A stretch of DNA of 64,000 bases from a virus: positions 1-64,000 of IMG/VR virus record IMGVR_UViG_3300034107_001363; one strand, written 5' to 3'. Made by a program: the position numbers and the translations under genes. Position 1 is the stretch's first letter. Each line of letters opens with the position of its first letter. Of this stretch, positions 1 through 4,120 are shown piece after piece. Below the pieces are notes generated by a model. The model was not told the origin of the DNA and did not search any database. It saw only the letters and a list, made by a program, of their open reading frames with translations.

Positions 1-123
1 TTCACACCCACACTCTGGCTCGTCGCTGGTTTTTACCACCTTGCGGGATAGCGCGATAAGCCGAACAAGGCGCTGATCTGAACCGCCATCAGACGGTTTT
101 TGGTTGTGACAGCTTTCACTCAT
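1..123 (-). CDS. Hypothetical protein, 5' part (runs off the left edge)
   Basis: ATG at 123-121 overlaps the end of ORF 116..553; MSESCHNQKPSDGGSDQRLVRLIAL... open to position 1. Confidence 0.6.
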   Translation of the reverse strand, partial: MSESCHNQKPSDGGSDQRLVRLIALSRKVVKTSDEPECGCE

Positions 124-150
124 GGCGGTCAGATACCTCGGTGTGCTTGC
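61..150 (+). repeat. attC-like imperfect inverted repeat 1 (R' degenerate)
   Basis: CCGAAC-AAGGC-GCTGATCTGAACCGCCAT ... ATGGCGGTCAGATACC with unpaired extra bases; GTG where GTT is expected. Confidence 0.6.
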
Positions 151-553
151 GGTCCTGGCGCTCTTGCTCTAGCTTTGCCTCAACCAGATCCGCGCGCAGC
201 CGGTAGGTTTTGGCGAATCCGACAAGCCGCTTTTCGTCGCTGCGGAGGATGGTGATCTGCTCCCGCTCGGCGGCTAGCTGTTCCTCCAGCTCCTCCAGCC
301 GGTCGGCGGCGGCGTCGAATATGCCACCTAAGTTGTATTGCCGCAGATCGGCGGCTAGTTCTTTGGTGTCGCAGTCGATGTCGGCCATGAGTTCGCACCT
401 GACGCAATCATGGTCATACCCATCGGCGTCGCGATAAGACGAACAAGCCGTCGCATCCGATGGACTCAACGGCTTCTCTTTGGCTGGCGGATTCCAGCAG
501 CCTCCATACATCTCGCACTTTTCCATGTCTTGGCAGTTTTCGCAGTATCTCAC
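116..553 (-). CDS. Hypothetical phage protein (Cys-rich N-terminus, coiled coil)
   Basis: 145-aa ORF coupled to its neighbours; shares AADRLEELE with ORF 550..912. Confidence 0.7.
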   Translation of the reverse strand: MRYCENCQDMEKCEMYGGCWNPPAKEKPLSPSDATACSSYRDADGYDHDCVRCELMADIDCDTKELAADLRQYNLGGIFDAAADRLEELEEQLAAEREQITILRSDEKRLVGFAKTYRLRADLVEAKLEQERQDRKHTEVSDRHE

Positions 554-596
554 GGCATTGGCTTTTCAGTTGCGTCCACGGATGGACTTTGTTCGT
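439..596 (+). repeat. attC-like site 2
   Basis: ACGAAC-AAGCC-GTC(G)CATCCG(A)TGGACTCAAC ... GTTGCGTCCACGGATGGAC-TTT-GTTCGT; AAC/GTT core and two extrahelical bases. Confidence 0.7.
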
Positions 597-912
597 TCTC
601 CCAAGGGAAAAGGAGTCTAGCTGGTGATGCCTTTTCGATCTCGCCCGCGAGCCTGTCCGCAAGCGCCCGCTCGGCAGCTAACTCAGCAAACGTCTTTTTT
701 TCCAGATCAATCACCTCGCGGTTTAGTTGCGTTTGAAAATCGAGCGATTGAGCGGATTCGGCAAGCTCTCGCTCAAGCTCTTCCAGCCGGTCGGCGGCTT
801 CGTCGATAACCGCGCCGACCCACGCGGCTGACGGCTGGTCTAGCGTCTCGTTGCCTCGCCTCCACGCGTTGTATTCGCGGAGCTGGCTGCATAGGTTGTT
901 GGTCGGTGTCAT
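550..912 (-). CDS. Hypothetical phage protein (coiled coil)
   Basis: 120-aa ORF; LREYNAWRRG motif typical of small phage proteins. Confidence 0.75.
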   Translation of the reverse strand: MTPTNNLCSQLREYNAWRRGNETLDQPSAAWVGAVIDEAADRLEELERELAESAQSLDFQTQLNREVIDLEKKTFAELAAERALADRLAGEIEKASPARLLFPWENEQSPSVDATEKPMP

Positions 913-926
913 GTCGTTTCGTGGTT

Positions 927-976
927 AGAACTCTGGGATGCACCGGACGCCGTTGCACCGGTGATCTCGCTGTTCT
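927..976 (+). repeat. attC-like site 3 (compact, intergenic)
   Basis: AGAAC-TCT-GGGAT(G)CACCGG ... CCGGTGATCTC-GCT-GTTCT. Confidence 0.7.
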
Positions 977-977
977 C

Positions 978-1226
978 TTAATCCAAGACGGGCGGAGTCT
1001 GTTTGATCCAGCGTGTCCCGGCGTCCGAGCGCAGATTGATGTTATCACAGCGCGTCCAGCAGCCGCCAGTGGTCCACGCCAGCACACGCTCTTGCACGGG
1101 TTCGCCAGCGTCTTCCCAATAGATCATTTCGGCCTTGCCAATTTTCCATTCGTCGCCGTGCTTTCCGCGATAGTGACGCCACCACCACCCTTCCGAGTCC
1201 GGGCGGATTTTCGCTGTGTTTTTCAT
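978..1226 (-). CDS. Hypothetical phage protein (Trp-rich)
   Basis: 82-aa ORF in the coupled minus-strand run; stop codon abuts attC-like site 3. Confidence 0.65.
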   Translation of the reverse strand: MKNTAKIRPDSEGWWWRHYRGKHGDEWKIGKAEMIYWEDAGEPVQERVLAWTTGGCWTRCDNINLRSDAGTRWIKQTPPVLD

Positions 1227-1432
1227 TGGTCGTTTTCAGGTTTCCACCAGTCGGCAACTTCGGTTAGATCTTTGGTATCAGGCTGCTCGATCATCCCTGC
1301 CAGACGGCAGAGTGATTCCGTTTCCGCTTTCTGCATTTCAAGCGCGGCTTCGATGTCGCCTTTTTCGGCGGCGTCCCATTTGAGTTGAGCGAAGCCGTGA
1401 GCCTCGGCGTTGGTTATCTCTTTGTTATTCAT
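1223..1432 (-). CDS. Hypothetical protein
   Basis: ATG at 1432; ATGA overlap with the next gene. Confidence 0.6.
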   Translation of the reverse strand: MNNKEITNAEAHGFAQLKWDAAEKGDIEAALEMQKAETESLCRLAGMIEQPDTKDLTEVADWWKPENDQ

Positions 1433-1487
1433 GGCTTTCGGAAATTCAGAGAACAAGGTGGCCGGTTAGAACTTTGATCTTCCCTCT

Positions 1488-2003
1488 TTAATCAATGCTT
1501 GAATTGCCTGAGGCCCATGCCTGCCAAATGATGATCATGTCCCGGACTTCCTGCGATTGCACGTAGAGGTTATCGAGTTCTTGCTTGGCTTTGGTGGCTT
1601 GCTTTAACGATGAATTTGATCCGTCATCAGCGAAAGTGGATGCTGCATCTAGGCAAGACAGGATCTCACTGACGATGGCGTGCATTTCCACGGCTTCGAG
1701 CCATGCTTCTCGCAGTTGGTCTCCGCAGGGTATTTTGGGGTTGGTTGTTTTCATTTGGTTGGATGGTGGGTTAAGAGCCAAAATTGCCTTGTCGAGTTTT
1801 TGGCGCTCGTCTTCAGGCATCGACTCGTAGGTGGCTCGGATGGCCTCACTGAGTGAGACAGCTTCATTGAAGCTATTTGGCATGGTGGTTTCTTTTGGTC
1901 CTTTGACACAGAACTGGTGCTTCCAAGGCCCCCTGCCAAAAAACCCACGGAAAGTTGGTTGTCCTTTCACGATGGGTTCTTGGCAGAGAGGGCAAATTTT
2001 CAT
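1488..2003 (-). CDS. Hypothetical protein (N-terminal CxxC...HxxC zinc-finger-like)
   Basis: 171-aa ORF; CPLC...HQFC. Confidence 0.6.
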   Translation of the reverse strand: MKICPLCQEPIVKGQPTFRGFFGRGPWKHQFCVKGPKETTMPNSFNEAVSLSEAIRATYESMPEDERQKLDKAILALNPPSNQMKTTNPKIPCGDQLREAWLEAVEMHAIVSEILSCLDAASTFADDGSNSSLKQATKAKQELDNLYVQSQEVRDMIIIWQAWASGNSSID

Positions 2004-2182
2004 GGCTTCAAGGTATTAACTTCGCAGGAGTCGCATCCCCAAAAAGCCTCATTGTCTTCAGTCTCGGCAATTGTTCGCCAGCGCTGCTCTAGTCCATCGA
2101 GCAGGATCTTGAATGGAATGTCCTCAAACTCCTCCCATGGGCCCTCAACGCTAAAGGCTACGTCAACAAGGAAGTTTCTCAT
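2000..2182 (-). CDS. Hypothetical protein
   Basis: 60 aa; ATGA overlaps on both sides. Confidence 0.6.
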   Translation of the reverse strand: MRNFLVDVAFSVEGPWEEFEDIPFKILLDGLEQRWRTIAETEDNEAFWGCDSCEVNTLKP

Positions 2183-3159
2183 GATGCGAGCATGGCTTCT
2201 CCGGCCTTGACGAACTTGTCCCAGTCACGCTCGAAGCCTTCCATCACGAAGCGCTTGACCTGTGCGCCGGAACCGAATTCGGACGAGTAGAGCTGGTTGC
2301 CAGCTTCGCGCGAGGACTCGTGGCTGTAGAACTCGGTGATGCCCATTGCAGCGTCCAGCCGGGTGCGGCCGGAGTTGCCCTTGCCGCCGTCGAACAGCTC
2401 GACGATGCGGGCGGTGCGCTGCTTGATCGAGTTGCTCAAGTCCTTGGCATTTCGTGTTTCCACGCCAGTTACCCAAGCACGGGCTTCGTCACGCGAGCAG
2501 GGCTCCTTGTCGGACGTTTCCATCAGGTGCTGGAAGTAGGCCGAGGTTCCGGCGAAGGTGTCGAGCGCGTCGATGACCTTCTGGATGTTGCCGTCGAGGT
2601 TGCCGGAGTGGCGGGCCTTGCCGACCACGCTGCCCGCCTGCAGGTTGGCAAGGAAGGTGTTGAGGCAGACCGTGACGATGGAGGAGTAGACCGCCGTAAT
2701 CGAGCAGCTTTTGTCGAAGCTGTCGAGCAGGGTGATGTAGTCCTTGACGATGCGGTCTCCGACCCGGAAGCCGTCGGTCACCTTGATCGAGGCGAACACC
2801 TTGCCACGGTTGTCGGTAGTGCCGGCCGAGATGACGGTGTAGGGGGTTTCGCCCAGTCCCTTTTCGAGGATGTTCCAGAAGCCCGCAATGGAGCTTGGTG
2901 TGTAGCTAGGGGCGAACGGGTCGCCGACCGGCAGGAAGTCGTCGGTCGCGATCAAACGACGCCAGTTGGGGTCTTCGATAATCTTGTCAGGGACTTCCCC
3001 GAACGGGTCGTTTGACGGGATGCGGTAGCAAAGCGGGGTGGAGACAACTTCGAACGGGGTCGAGTTTTCTTTCGTTACCTCCGGTACGATGTTGGTGAGA
3101 CGGTGCCAGGCGTTTTCTAGTCCGCTCTGGATGTCGCGATTGGTGAGTCCGTGGGCCAT
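2179..3159 (-). CDS. DUF932 (phage/plasmid TIGR03299-like) protein
   Basis: AWHRL N-terminus, DSFDKS...VCLNT, RHSG and GRT...AxxGITEF motifs. Confidence 0.8.
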   Translation of the reverse strand: MAHGLTNRDIQSGLENAWHRLTNIVPEVTKENSTPFEVVSTPLCYRIPSNDPFGEVPDKIIEDPNWRRLIATDDFLPVGDPFAPSYTPSSIAGFWNILEKGLGETPYTVISAGTTDNRGKVFASIKVTDGFRVGDRIVKDYITLLDSFDKSCSITAVYSSIVTVCLNTFLANLQAGSVVGKARHSGNLDGNIQKVIDALDTFAGTSAYFQHLMETSDKEPCSRDEARAWVTGVETRNAKDLSNSIKQRTARIVELFDGGKGNSGRTRLDAAMGITEFYSHESSREAGNQLYSSEFGSGAQVKRFVMEGFERDWDKFVKAGEAMLAS

Positions 3160-3187
3160 GGTAGGTTCCTTTCTTGGTGTTGTTGGT

Positions 3188-3499
3188 TTAGAGAAGCCGT
3201 GGATTGTTCCAAGGCTGGGATTCGACGAGAGACATGAGTCGGGCGATTTGGGATTCCAGCTCGAACAAGCGTAAGTGGATGTCGTTTTCGGACTTTTGCT
3301 GGTTGCTTTTCCAGCCGAGGTCTTGCCGGATGCGGTTATACATGCTTTCGGACATCACAAGGAATCCGGCTTCCTTGAGCGTTTTGATTCCTTCGCTGGC
3401 ACTTTGGCGTTCCAGCGTTTCTTTGTTGTCGCTCATCCATTGCATCACCTTGAAGGTGTCGGTTCGGTTGAGGCGGGTTATTTTCTTTTGTGTGTTCAT
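3188..3499 (-). CDS. Hypothetical protein (possible HTH)
   Basis: 103-aa ORF; first gene downstream of the hairpin motif at 3551. Confidence 0.65.
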   Translation of the reverse strand: MNTQKKITRLNRTDTFKVMQWMSDNKETLERQSASEGIKTLKEAGFLVMSESMYNRIRQDLGWKSNQQKSENDIHLRLFELESQIARLMSLVESQPWNNPRLL

Positions 3500-3634: not shown

Positions 3635-4120
3635 TCAAAGTTTGCGTGCAGCCCGCTCGTCGTCACCGACCTTGGCGTGGCATTCGTGGCACAAAATTTG
3701 GTAACCTTCAGATTCGATGTAAAGCCGTCGGATTACTTCACTCCAGTCGTATCCGAGGAAATGGTTGCCTTCTGCCCAGTCGTGCTGAAGAGGAATGACT
3801 GGTTCGGTATGGTCTGCATGAACTCCGTTTTGGGGAAATTGGCGCTGACAATGCTGGCACTGGTGTAGTTTGCACTGGCGGCCGGTTGCCGGGTTGGTGC
3901 CATGTCCTACAAAGGCTTTTTTGAGGGCTTGGTGGCGCTGTGGCCACTGGGCACGACGAAGGGCGGACATCACGAAGCTACGCATCCGTGCAAGGGTCCA
4001 TTCGCCTCCATTGAACGGACGCTCAATCCCGCTCCGGGGAGTAGGTCGCTTTTTTGCGAAATGCTTGGGCTTTTTTGTGGTAGAGGCCGGAGCCTTTTTT
4101 TTGCGTCGGAAGGGCATCAA
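3635..4120 (-). CDS. HNH endonuclease
   Basis: SALRRA..WP; CQHC...HADHTEPV...YQILCHECH zinc-HNH pattern. Confidence 0.8.
   Translation of the reverse strand: MMPFRRKKKAPASTTKKPKHFAKKRPTPRSGIERPFNGGEWTLARMRSFVMSALRRAQWPQRHQALKKAFVGHGTNPATGRQCKLHQCQHCQRQFPQNGVHADHTEPVIPLQHDWAEGNHFLGYDWSEVIRRLYIESEGYQILCHECHAKVGDDERAARKL

Follow-up and report, generated by a model that had tools for sequence, protein, structure and literature searches.

Candidate attC-like recombination sites in frame on the coding strand of small early genes of an uncultivated lake phage

Integrons are regarded as a bacterial device, and their attC sites are mostly non-coding. This study concerns a viral stretch of 64,000 nt (the window), bases 1-64000 of the 73,295-base IMG/VR record IMGVR_UViG_3300034107_001363, which CheckV rates as complete, and in particular three imperfect inverted repeats (sites 1, 2 and 3) that lie within its first kilobase and share the geometry of a folded attC bottom strand. 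The three belong to a single family of folded hairpins, carried by the coding strand of small early genes, and we hold it moderately probable that they serve in recombination. While giving an account of their structure, reading frames, copies and breakpoints, this report also sets out how such sites might recombine and weighs the alternatives.

Introduction

The closest described counterparts are the clusters of attC sites without an integrase (CALINs) of phages. According to the excerpts of the literature on which all comparisons here rest, such clusters were reported only in 2023 and are apparently rare, with 17 of them, some in virulent phages, among 10,705 phage genomes screened; five of six phage attC sites tested were recombined by IntI1 (Qi et al. 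2023, PMC9892861). Like these clusters, the present locus combines several co-oriented attC-type hairpins within about 1-2 kb, the lack of an integrase and small genes of unknown function; unlike them, so far as the excerpts describe them, it has the recombinogenic-type strand as its coding strand, is read through in frame, carries GAAC/GTTC feet and belongs to an uncultivated lake lineage (PMC9892861). The attC bottom strand of integrons folds into a hairpin of 57-141 nt with AAC as its 5' foot, GTT as its 3' foot and spacers of 5-6 nt, and with extrahelical bases on the arm opposite AAC, of which the far one is T and the near one, six pairs away, is usually G (Nivina et al. 2016, PMC5027507). 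With class 1 and chromosomal integron sites the phage sites have in common the AAC/GTT feet, spacers of about 5 nt, the 3-bp box, the succession of bulge, 6 bp and T, and a variable loop, and, as in chromosomal arrays, near-identical sites stand beside different genes; they differ in having neither integrase nor attI nearby, in departing from the wider consensus, in having C as the near bulge, in two lengths (54 and 160 nt) and in the reversed direction of the genes (PMC5027507).

Other known systems resemble the locus in part. The promoter-early stem-loop (PeSL) cassettes of T4-type phages likewise have repeated short hairpins where small genes of unknown function adjoin in a hyperplastic early region, with gene gain, loss and replacement, and PeSL-mediated shuffling and mini-circles are documented; however, PeSLs are intergenic sigma-70 promoters plus terminators that recombine by homology, whereas the present sites have attC geometry in common despite their different sequences and are translated, sites 1 and 2 lying within reading frames (Arbiol et al. 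2010, PMC2839356). Within attI1, the short frame ORF-11 crosses an integron recombination site, ends at the core and couples the next gene, but it is a single fixed site beside an integrase, whereas here every site of the array seems to couple whichever gene precedes it (PMC8876359). Synthetic attC sites written into coding sequence depend, as these appear to, on structure and can be embedded in other sequence, but they were designed, whereas the phage sites are natural and in frame (Nivina et al. 2020, PMC7439510). A search of this partly accessible literature found no report of coding-strand sites, of in-frame translation of a whole array or of a cut site inside a codon, and a similar layout may be tabulated in the supplements of PMC9892861. 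Phage attC clusters are already known; what is new here is that the genes run the other way and that the sites are translated in frame.

Structure of the three sites

A first-pass annotation, made from the letters of the window alone, had reported three inverted repeats of attC architecture, and a sequence check located each of them where it had been placed, with the quoted strings correct, among them GAT-G-CACCGG / CCGGTGATC in site 3 and GTC-G-CATCCG / CGGATGGAC in site 2. All three lie on the minus strand and are described here in that direction. Site 3 (925..978, 54 nt) is attC-like in sequence, fold and geometry. Its 5' arm consists of R' AGAGAAC (978-972), the spacer AGCGA (971-967), the 3-bp box GAT (966-964) and the 6-bp stem CACCGG (963-958); after a loop at 957-948, the 3' arm continues with a bulged T (947), CCGGTG (946-941), a bulged C (940), ATC (939-937), the spacer CCAGA (936-932) and R'' GTTCTAA (931-925). 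Site 2 (438..597, 160 nt) pairs at 13 of 13 arm positions and also matches the geometry. Its 5' arm has R' AAC at 597-595 (in frame) or 593-591, then GTC (587-585), CATCCG (584-579) and TGGAC (578-574), and beyond a long loop the 3' arm has GTCCA (465-461), a bulged T (460), CGGATG (459-454), a bulged C (453), GAC (452-450), the spacer GGCTT (449-445) and R'' GTTCGTC (444-438). Site 1 (60..149, 90 nt) is a degenerate attC-like site with 12 of 13 arm pairs, having CAC at 145-143 where AAC is expected, which bears out the annotation's GTG in place of GTT (143-145). The rest of its 5' arm comprises a spacer (142-138), GGT (137-135, two of three pairs), ATCTGA (134-129) and CCGCCAT (128-122), and its 3' arm ATGGCGG (89-83), a bulged T (82), TCAGAT (81-76), a bulged C (75), AGC (74-72), the spacer GCCTT (71-67) and R'' GTTCGGC (66-60).

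The AAC...GTT feet (the R box) are present in sites 2 and 3 with 4-5 and 8 paired foot bases, respectively, and the unpaired spacers measure 5+5 nt in sites 3 and 1 and, depending on the choice of AAC, 7+5 or 3+5 nt in site 2. On the GTT arm, sites 1, 2 and 3 each show a bulged T, 6 bp, a bulged base and then 3 bp, as in attC, and the same bulge layout was checked on 10 real attCs. A fourth site, a second copy of site 3, stands at genome 73225-73172. The record is circularly continuous, in that the TGA stop of open reading frame (ORF) B (123->1) forms across its ends, and contig L005 of a relative carries the genes of both ends together; four sites lie within about 1.1 kb across the record ends, all on the minus strand. 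Co-oriented and without an integrase nearby, they make up a CALIN if accepted as attC sites; by the plasmid-trained model described below, taken alone, only site 2 comes near threshold. The annotation's estimate of roughly one site per gene fits genes D, C, A and B and breaks down at the E/D and F/E junctions. Upstream of gene E there is a lone 3' foot of site 3, AGTTCTAACC (1464..1473, minus strand), from which the hairpin is absent; in relatives and metagenome contigs a full site 3 precedes gene E, and a loose contig end falls at 1473.

Likeness to integron attC sites

A covariance model (the plasmid-trained model) was built from 10 natural class-1 attC bottom strands of plasmid arrays, aligned with the textbook structure, which holds in most of these training sites. 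On held-out real attCs it scored 26.8 bits (dfrA17), 40.4 bits (dfrA12) and 42.5 bits (orfF cassette), with nothing else above 15.2 bits in the 78 kb containing them, and its best score in a negative control of 99 kb of unrelated viral contigs (10 viral-contig matches to the pattern CTTGTTCGNCTTATCGCG, none related to this genome) was 14.1 bits. In relatives of the phage it gave 37.2 bits (E 7e-9) at L014 5212-5297, 27.9 bits at L019 6369-6453, 26.1 bits at L031 668-755 and 19.3 bits at L014 4188-4276, and its matches in the phage data are all on the coding strand. Support from this model, which is independent of the phage data, is strong in the relatives and only borderline in the window itself, whose scores are given below. 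In a more distant relative, L015 6582-6649 scored 17.0 bits (E 0.015) with the feet CCCTGAC/GTCAGGC, without AAC/GTT.

Seven phage sites were aligned to the plasmid-trained model, a fit that favours the structure; 94.1% of cells were paired in this alignment, compared with 69.1 +/- 3.1 after shuffling and with none of 500 shuffles reaching the observed value, and 13 of 21 pairs had changes on both sides (slid controls, 24-46%). All seven keep A-U, A-U and C-G at the triplet. A second covariance model (the phage-trained model), made from these seven sites only, with site 2 and another copy of site 3 in its training set and site 1 outside it, recovers 13 of 13 distinct real attCs on the correct strand (13.3-48.2 bits). 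Across the whole genome it finds exactly five sites of at least 30 bits, all on the minus strand, with the next best at 15.9 bits and unrelated-contig noise at 14.4 bits. These are site 1 (60-149; 30.1 bits, E 1e-5, outside the training set), site 2 (438-597; 65.7 bits, in the training set), site 3 (925-978; 35.3 bits, another copy in the training set), the second copy of site 3 (73172-73225; 30.9 bits) and a hairpin between converging gene blocks (65212-65269; 30.5 bits). The three best sites in the window are the three repeats originally reported. Together with the geometry scan described next, the phage-trained model (30-66 bits) ties the sites of the window to the strong sites of the relatives, one of which, L014, has six sites by this model within 1.65 kb.

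Side observations attach to some of these matches. At L014 5030, L019 5692 and L020 424, a 3'-arm motif (T, 6, N, 3, spacer, GTTC) lies upstream of a start codon with no clear 5' partner in an arm scan (11/13 pairs), and the phage-trained model gives L014 4952-5036 a score of 31.3 bits despite this; these may be half or decayed sites. The hairpin at genome 65212-65269 (L045 1212-1269; 58 nt, minus strand, outside the window) has the full attC-like layout, with perfect 7-bp feet TGAGAAC/GTTCTCA and a fold of -20.1 kcal/mol, and sits at the exact meeting point of converging plus- and minus-strand gene blocks, where one foot includes the TGA stop of a 5,977-codon ORF. The hairpin may act as a terminator, close the array as its final site, or do both.

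Geometry and chance

As plain inverted repeats of their strength, the three sites are not beyond chance. Arm pairing at least equal to that of site 2 turns up 87 times among 9130 windows of the real genome and 63 times among as many shuffled windows; the figures are 27 and 21 for site 1 and 245 and 168 for site 3, again out of 9130. Site 1 folds with z-scores of -1.2/-1.5, site 2 with -3.25/-2.85 and site 3 with -2.9/-2.4, and by raw folding energy site 2 is ordinary, ranking 1673 among 7314 windows of 158 nt. As attC-shaped sites, the repeats are far beyond chance. A geometry scan demanding AAC, spacer of 3-7, 3 bp, 6 bp, inner stem, T, 6, N, 3, spacer of 5 and GTT, with sequence required only at AAC, GTT and T, finds four distinct matches in the 73-kb genome, all on the minus strand (442-597, 929-974, 65216-65265 and 73176-73221), while 100 shuffles give a mean of 0.11 (90 with none, nine with one and one with two). 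In 128 kb of plasmid integron loci, the same scan recovers nine of 17 real attC instances and makes no other match; on the coding strand of the relatives it finds four sites in L014, two in L019 and one each in L020 and L031. Site 1 is missed because of its CAC. When loosened, the scan yields many background matches, and an earlier loose AAC..GTT scan, whose thresholds had been set post hoc, was replaced by the strict one. It is very improbable, and in effect already refuted, that the sites are chance inverted repeats picked out by eye, as the similar arm-pairing counts of real and shuffled genomes might suggest; the four geometry matches against 0.11, the scores of the plasmid-trained model in relatives, the covariation, the phage-trained model, and the breakpoints and in-frame rule described below all speak against it.

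Reading frames and translational coupling

On the minus strand, the sites are embedded in a run of small genes. Gene D (978..1226, 82 aa, no known family) ends at a TAA stop (980-978) that abuts site 3 in the frame of its AAC. Gene C (550..912, 120 aa), a member of a coiled-coil paralogue family, has its ATG 12 nt after site 3 and ends with 16 codons that form the 5' arm of site 2. ORF A (116..553, 145 aa as called) has residues 1-55 inside or just after site 2 and its last codons in the 5' arm of site 1; its coding score is weak over 553-389 (0.10) and strong over 388-119 (0.58), and the part from the ATG at 388 is a paralogue of gene C. ORF B (1..123, 41 aa) starts in the loop of site 1, and its TGA overlaps the start codon (ATG) of a 46-codon ORF whose frame passes through the copy of site 3 at genome 73225-73172. 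Gene E (1223..1432, 69 aa) shares 81-83% amino-acid identity with its counterparts in three relatives, where the full site 3 precedes it. The peptides that had been quoted for the arms are present in the ORF translations, and the stop/start junctions do lie inside the loops, with the gene C stop (550-552) and the ORF A start (551-553) in site 2 and the ORF A stop (116-118) and the ORF B start (121-123) in site 1.

An in-frame rule emerges: at 18 of 20 sites the longest open frame on the upstream side reads AAC as one of its codons, and about 15 distinct upstream genes are involved. This genome holds both exceptions: gene D, although in the frame of AAC, ends one codon short of it, and at the second copy of site 3 another frame is longer than the 46-codon ORF. 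At 14 of the 20 sites, the upstream frame ends in a stop that overlaps a start codon. In real plasmid arrays, bottom-strand matches lie opposite the genes, whereas in the phages both models find their matches on the coding strand, and each site immediately precedes a gene; the annotation was right, therefore, that the genes run opposite to the usual cassette orientation.

These arrangements would also be compatible with an RNA role, in which hairpins of the coding-strand transcript set coupling, processing or stability and no DNA recombination takes place. The attC-like strand is the mRNA strand, the 14 stop/start overlaps lie in or just after the hairpins, and a stem change in site 3's second copy yields G-U on the coding strand alone. 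Such a role would nevertheless leave unexplained the invariant AAC/GTT feet, the bulged T six pairs off, the match to attC models and the breakpoints at AAC, and Rfam at gathering thresholds has no family in the window (0 matches). As the whole explanation it appears quite improbable; an RNA role could exist alongside recombination.

Copies of site 3 and their distribution

Site 3 occurs in eight copies in five records: in the window, at genome 73225-73172 and, six times, in four related contigs. Column by column the copies are about 89% alike, and all eight lose mutual similarity just upstream of GAAC, where the upstream genes are unrelated. The sequencing runs that contain the phage sequence are lake-water metagenomes. 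In the best of these, the contigs over 1-3200 share one even depth of about 104-131, so that the region is part of the phage genome; lake metagenome depth at base 935, in site 3, is about 2271, compared with about 109 in the flanks (about 20-fold), and several different contig continuations begin after base 975. The pattern GCATCCNAGAGTTCTAACC has one true match in metagenome contigs, in L031, and its single match in 185,579 species genomes was taken as chance, the flanks being unrelated. A change in copy L019_b of site 3 had been read as compensatory, a reading dropped when no compensatory pair was counted. At L005 5480-5492, in a relative without sites, a 13-base string of the site 3 5' arm was seen by eye inside a gene in the same reading frame (E-I-T-G); this may be chance.

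Breakpoints between relatives

The annotation had proposed looking for gene gain and loss at the cores, and two natural differences between near-identical relatives do fall at AAC. The first is a 456-nt unit of one site and one gene that is present in L019 and absent from L014, with near-identical flanks and with its edges in a 21-nt repeat starting at AAC. The second is a tail swap, in which another gene common to L014 and L019 (two mismatches in about 180 nt) is identical up to ...TTGTCGAAC and then runs into two unrelated sites, giving two different protein tails that diverge exactly at AAC, with only CGAAC common at the junction. Going by the sequences, the tail swap is hard to explain by homologous recombination.

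Homology is nonetheless at the heart of another explanation, namely that the sites are conserved regulatory hairpins at gene junctions whose common sequence serves the phage's general recombination in the manner of PeSLs, their likeness to attC being incidental. The 456-nt indel is flanked by a 21-nt direct repeat, so that homologous recombination could also have produced it, and this tells against our reading. The similarity of the site 3 copies, an exonuclease-like phage protein (6248-7111), many junctions outside sites and the PeSL precedent (PMC2839356) are in keeping with such a process. Against it stand sites of different sequence that adhere to a single exact geometry, with covariation, and have scores like those of real attCs, and the tail swap with its five shared bases. 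A PeSL-type element is made less likely by two negative searches: window 1-2200 yielded no sigma-70-like promoter, and none of sites 1-3 has anything terminator-like on the coding strand. An initial interpretation of site 3 as a PeSL-like repeated linker, with sites 1 and 2 as chance, was accordingly abandoned after the results of the plasmid-trained model, geometry scan, covariation, phage-trained model, breakpoints and reading frames. Overall, this explanation seems to us rather unlikely.

Counter-evidence

Several results weigh against recombination sites of the attC kind. With the plasmid-trained model, site 2 reaches a weak 15.4 bits (E 0.037-0.072), site 3 a non-significant 10.1 bits (E 1.8-3.5; its copies score 9.6-13.7 bits, inside noise), while site 1 does not appear among its matches up to E 10. 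The covariance-model check suggested at the outset gives strong support for the relatives' sites (19.3-37.2 bits) and only borderline support for those of the window; neither it nor the breakpoint comparison refuted the annotation's idea. The covariation and the results of the phage-trained model are partly circular, because the plasmid-trained model chose and fitted the seven sites, and among the copies of site 3 there are no compensatory pairs, five broken cells and two G-U cells. In structure, site 1 lacks the AAC/GTT foot, having CAC instead of AAC, and the near bulge, usually G in attC, is C in the sites of the window (L019 6369-6453 and L031 668-755 do have G). The wider RYYYAAC/GTTRRRY consensus is absent, with AGAGAAC/GTTCTAA in site 3, AACGAAC or GGAGAAC/GTTCGTC in site 2 and GTTCGGC in site 1, and the phage feet are GAAC/GTTC, whereas all 13 real attCs examined have TAAC/GTTA; among phage sites only L019 6369-6453 has GTTA. 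Site 1, at 90 nt, is within the range of 57-141 nt, while sites 3 (54 nt) and 2 (160 nt) are just outside it. The usual cassette arrangement, an ORF on the top strand upstream of its own attC, is reversed. Such sites are absent from two close relatives, the records with L005 and L012. Metagenome mosaic junctions at 127, 583-691 and 1221 lie away from any site, so that general mosaicism is also at work; four contig joints (675>764, 675>923, 778>901 and 799>909), seen in contigs only, link paralogous gene motifs and do not run from site to site.

The absence of a recombinase is a further point of this kind. No tyrosine recombinase (PF00589, TIGR02249) was found at E up to 1 in the 73-kb genome, which agrees with the annotation's statement that the window holds no integrase, and none in the records of five relatives; serine recombinase and Y1 transposase families also gave nothing in the genome at E up to 1. 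A phage in which no integrase is found, a site 1 without AAC and with one pair of its 3-bp box missing, the lone 3' foot at 1464-1473 and the unrepaired stem mismatches in the copies of site 3 are what one would expect of decayed relics, that is, of bacterial integron cassettes captured by an ancestor of the phage, in which recombination has ended. However, the unit difference and the tail swap between near-identical relatives point to recent events, a strict in-frame rule over about 15 upstream genes is unexpected in relics, and the genes are oriented opposite to those of bacterial cassettes, all of which makes this origin distinctly unlikely.

Proposed mechanism

On balance we lean towards a recombination mechanism at the attC-like sites. 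The three sites, with the fourth across the record ends, split about 1.1 kb into site-plus-gene units of roughly 220-450 nt, and in single-stranded DNA each site would fold, allowing units to be excised, inserted or reordered. The recombining enzyme, probably of the IntI kind, would presumably be the host's, since no recombinase encoded by the phage was found. With AAC serving as an in-frame Asn codon of the upstream gene, the 5' arm of the next site supplies that gene's last 10-30 codons as well as a stop that usually overlaps the next start codon, so that any new order of neighbours would keep the genes translationally coupled, a feature likely to matter for the system. The cassette-like array first proposed is supported by the covariance-model and breakpoint tests. 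What the sequences show is a family of sites with a common geometry and covariation, their resemblance to real attCs, the in-frame placement of AAC and natural differences of one unit that stop at AAC; the action of an integrase is something we infer.

A more tentative proposal, possible though short of probable, is that the locus is a phage-specific mirror image of an integron. It would maintain a pool of very small cassettes, each with attC upstream of its gene on the coding strand and doubling as a translated adapter. Cutting at AA|C would take place inside the in-frame Asn codon, such that the upstream gene would gain a new short tail and stop at the start of the next gene, and every permutation would stay expressed with no need for its own promoter or ribosome-binding site. 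The enzyme might be a host integron integrase borrowed during infection or an unrecognised phage enzyme, and the cassettes might circulate among co-infecting phages and not among bacterial arrays.

Genome setting

Genes on the minus strand occupy about 1-21000 and 65267-73295 of the genome. By blastn, window 1-3200 has no match among 50,697 phage records, eight of ten large proteins have no PHROG family, and the lineage looks, from these comparisons of sequence, very distant from described phages. Seven large plus-strand ORFs (430-1033 aa, window 22000-47000) have no PHROG family at E 1e-5 or better, and the 5,977-codon ORF runs from window 47281 to genome 65214, its first 5,000 residues being without a Pfam match. 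For the small genes A-G, Pfam and PHROGs gave no match; the only matches are DUF932 (2179-3159) and an HNH endonuclease (3635-4120). The DUF932 protein adjoins the array, and the same domain occurs in the leading region of plasmid R100 near antirestriction, ssb and psiB genes. Small coiled-coil proteins made of shuffled short modules (motifs AADRLEELE and ERALADRLA) are encoded at window 116-912, genome 72505-73159, and L014 3712-4038 and 5842-6378, and mosaic junctions of this family lie inside genes.

Implications

If the proposed reading is true, an abundant lineage of lake phages uses attC-like sites inside its early-gene region. Such regions of phages usually hold genes for host takeover and counter-defence. 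Sites on the coding strand, translated in frame and cut inside a codon would change the view of cassette systems, and they would be a natural counterpart to the designed attC sites that have been written into genes. Related variants differing by one unit are already present in public lake metagenomes, and the question of whether phages borrow host integrases to shuffle their accessory genes becomes a testable one.

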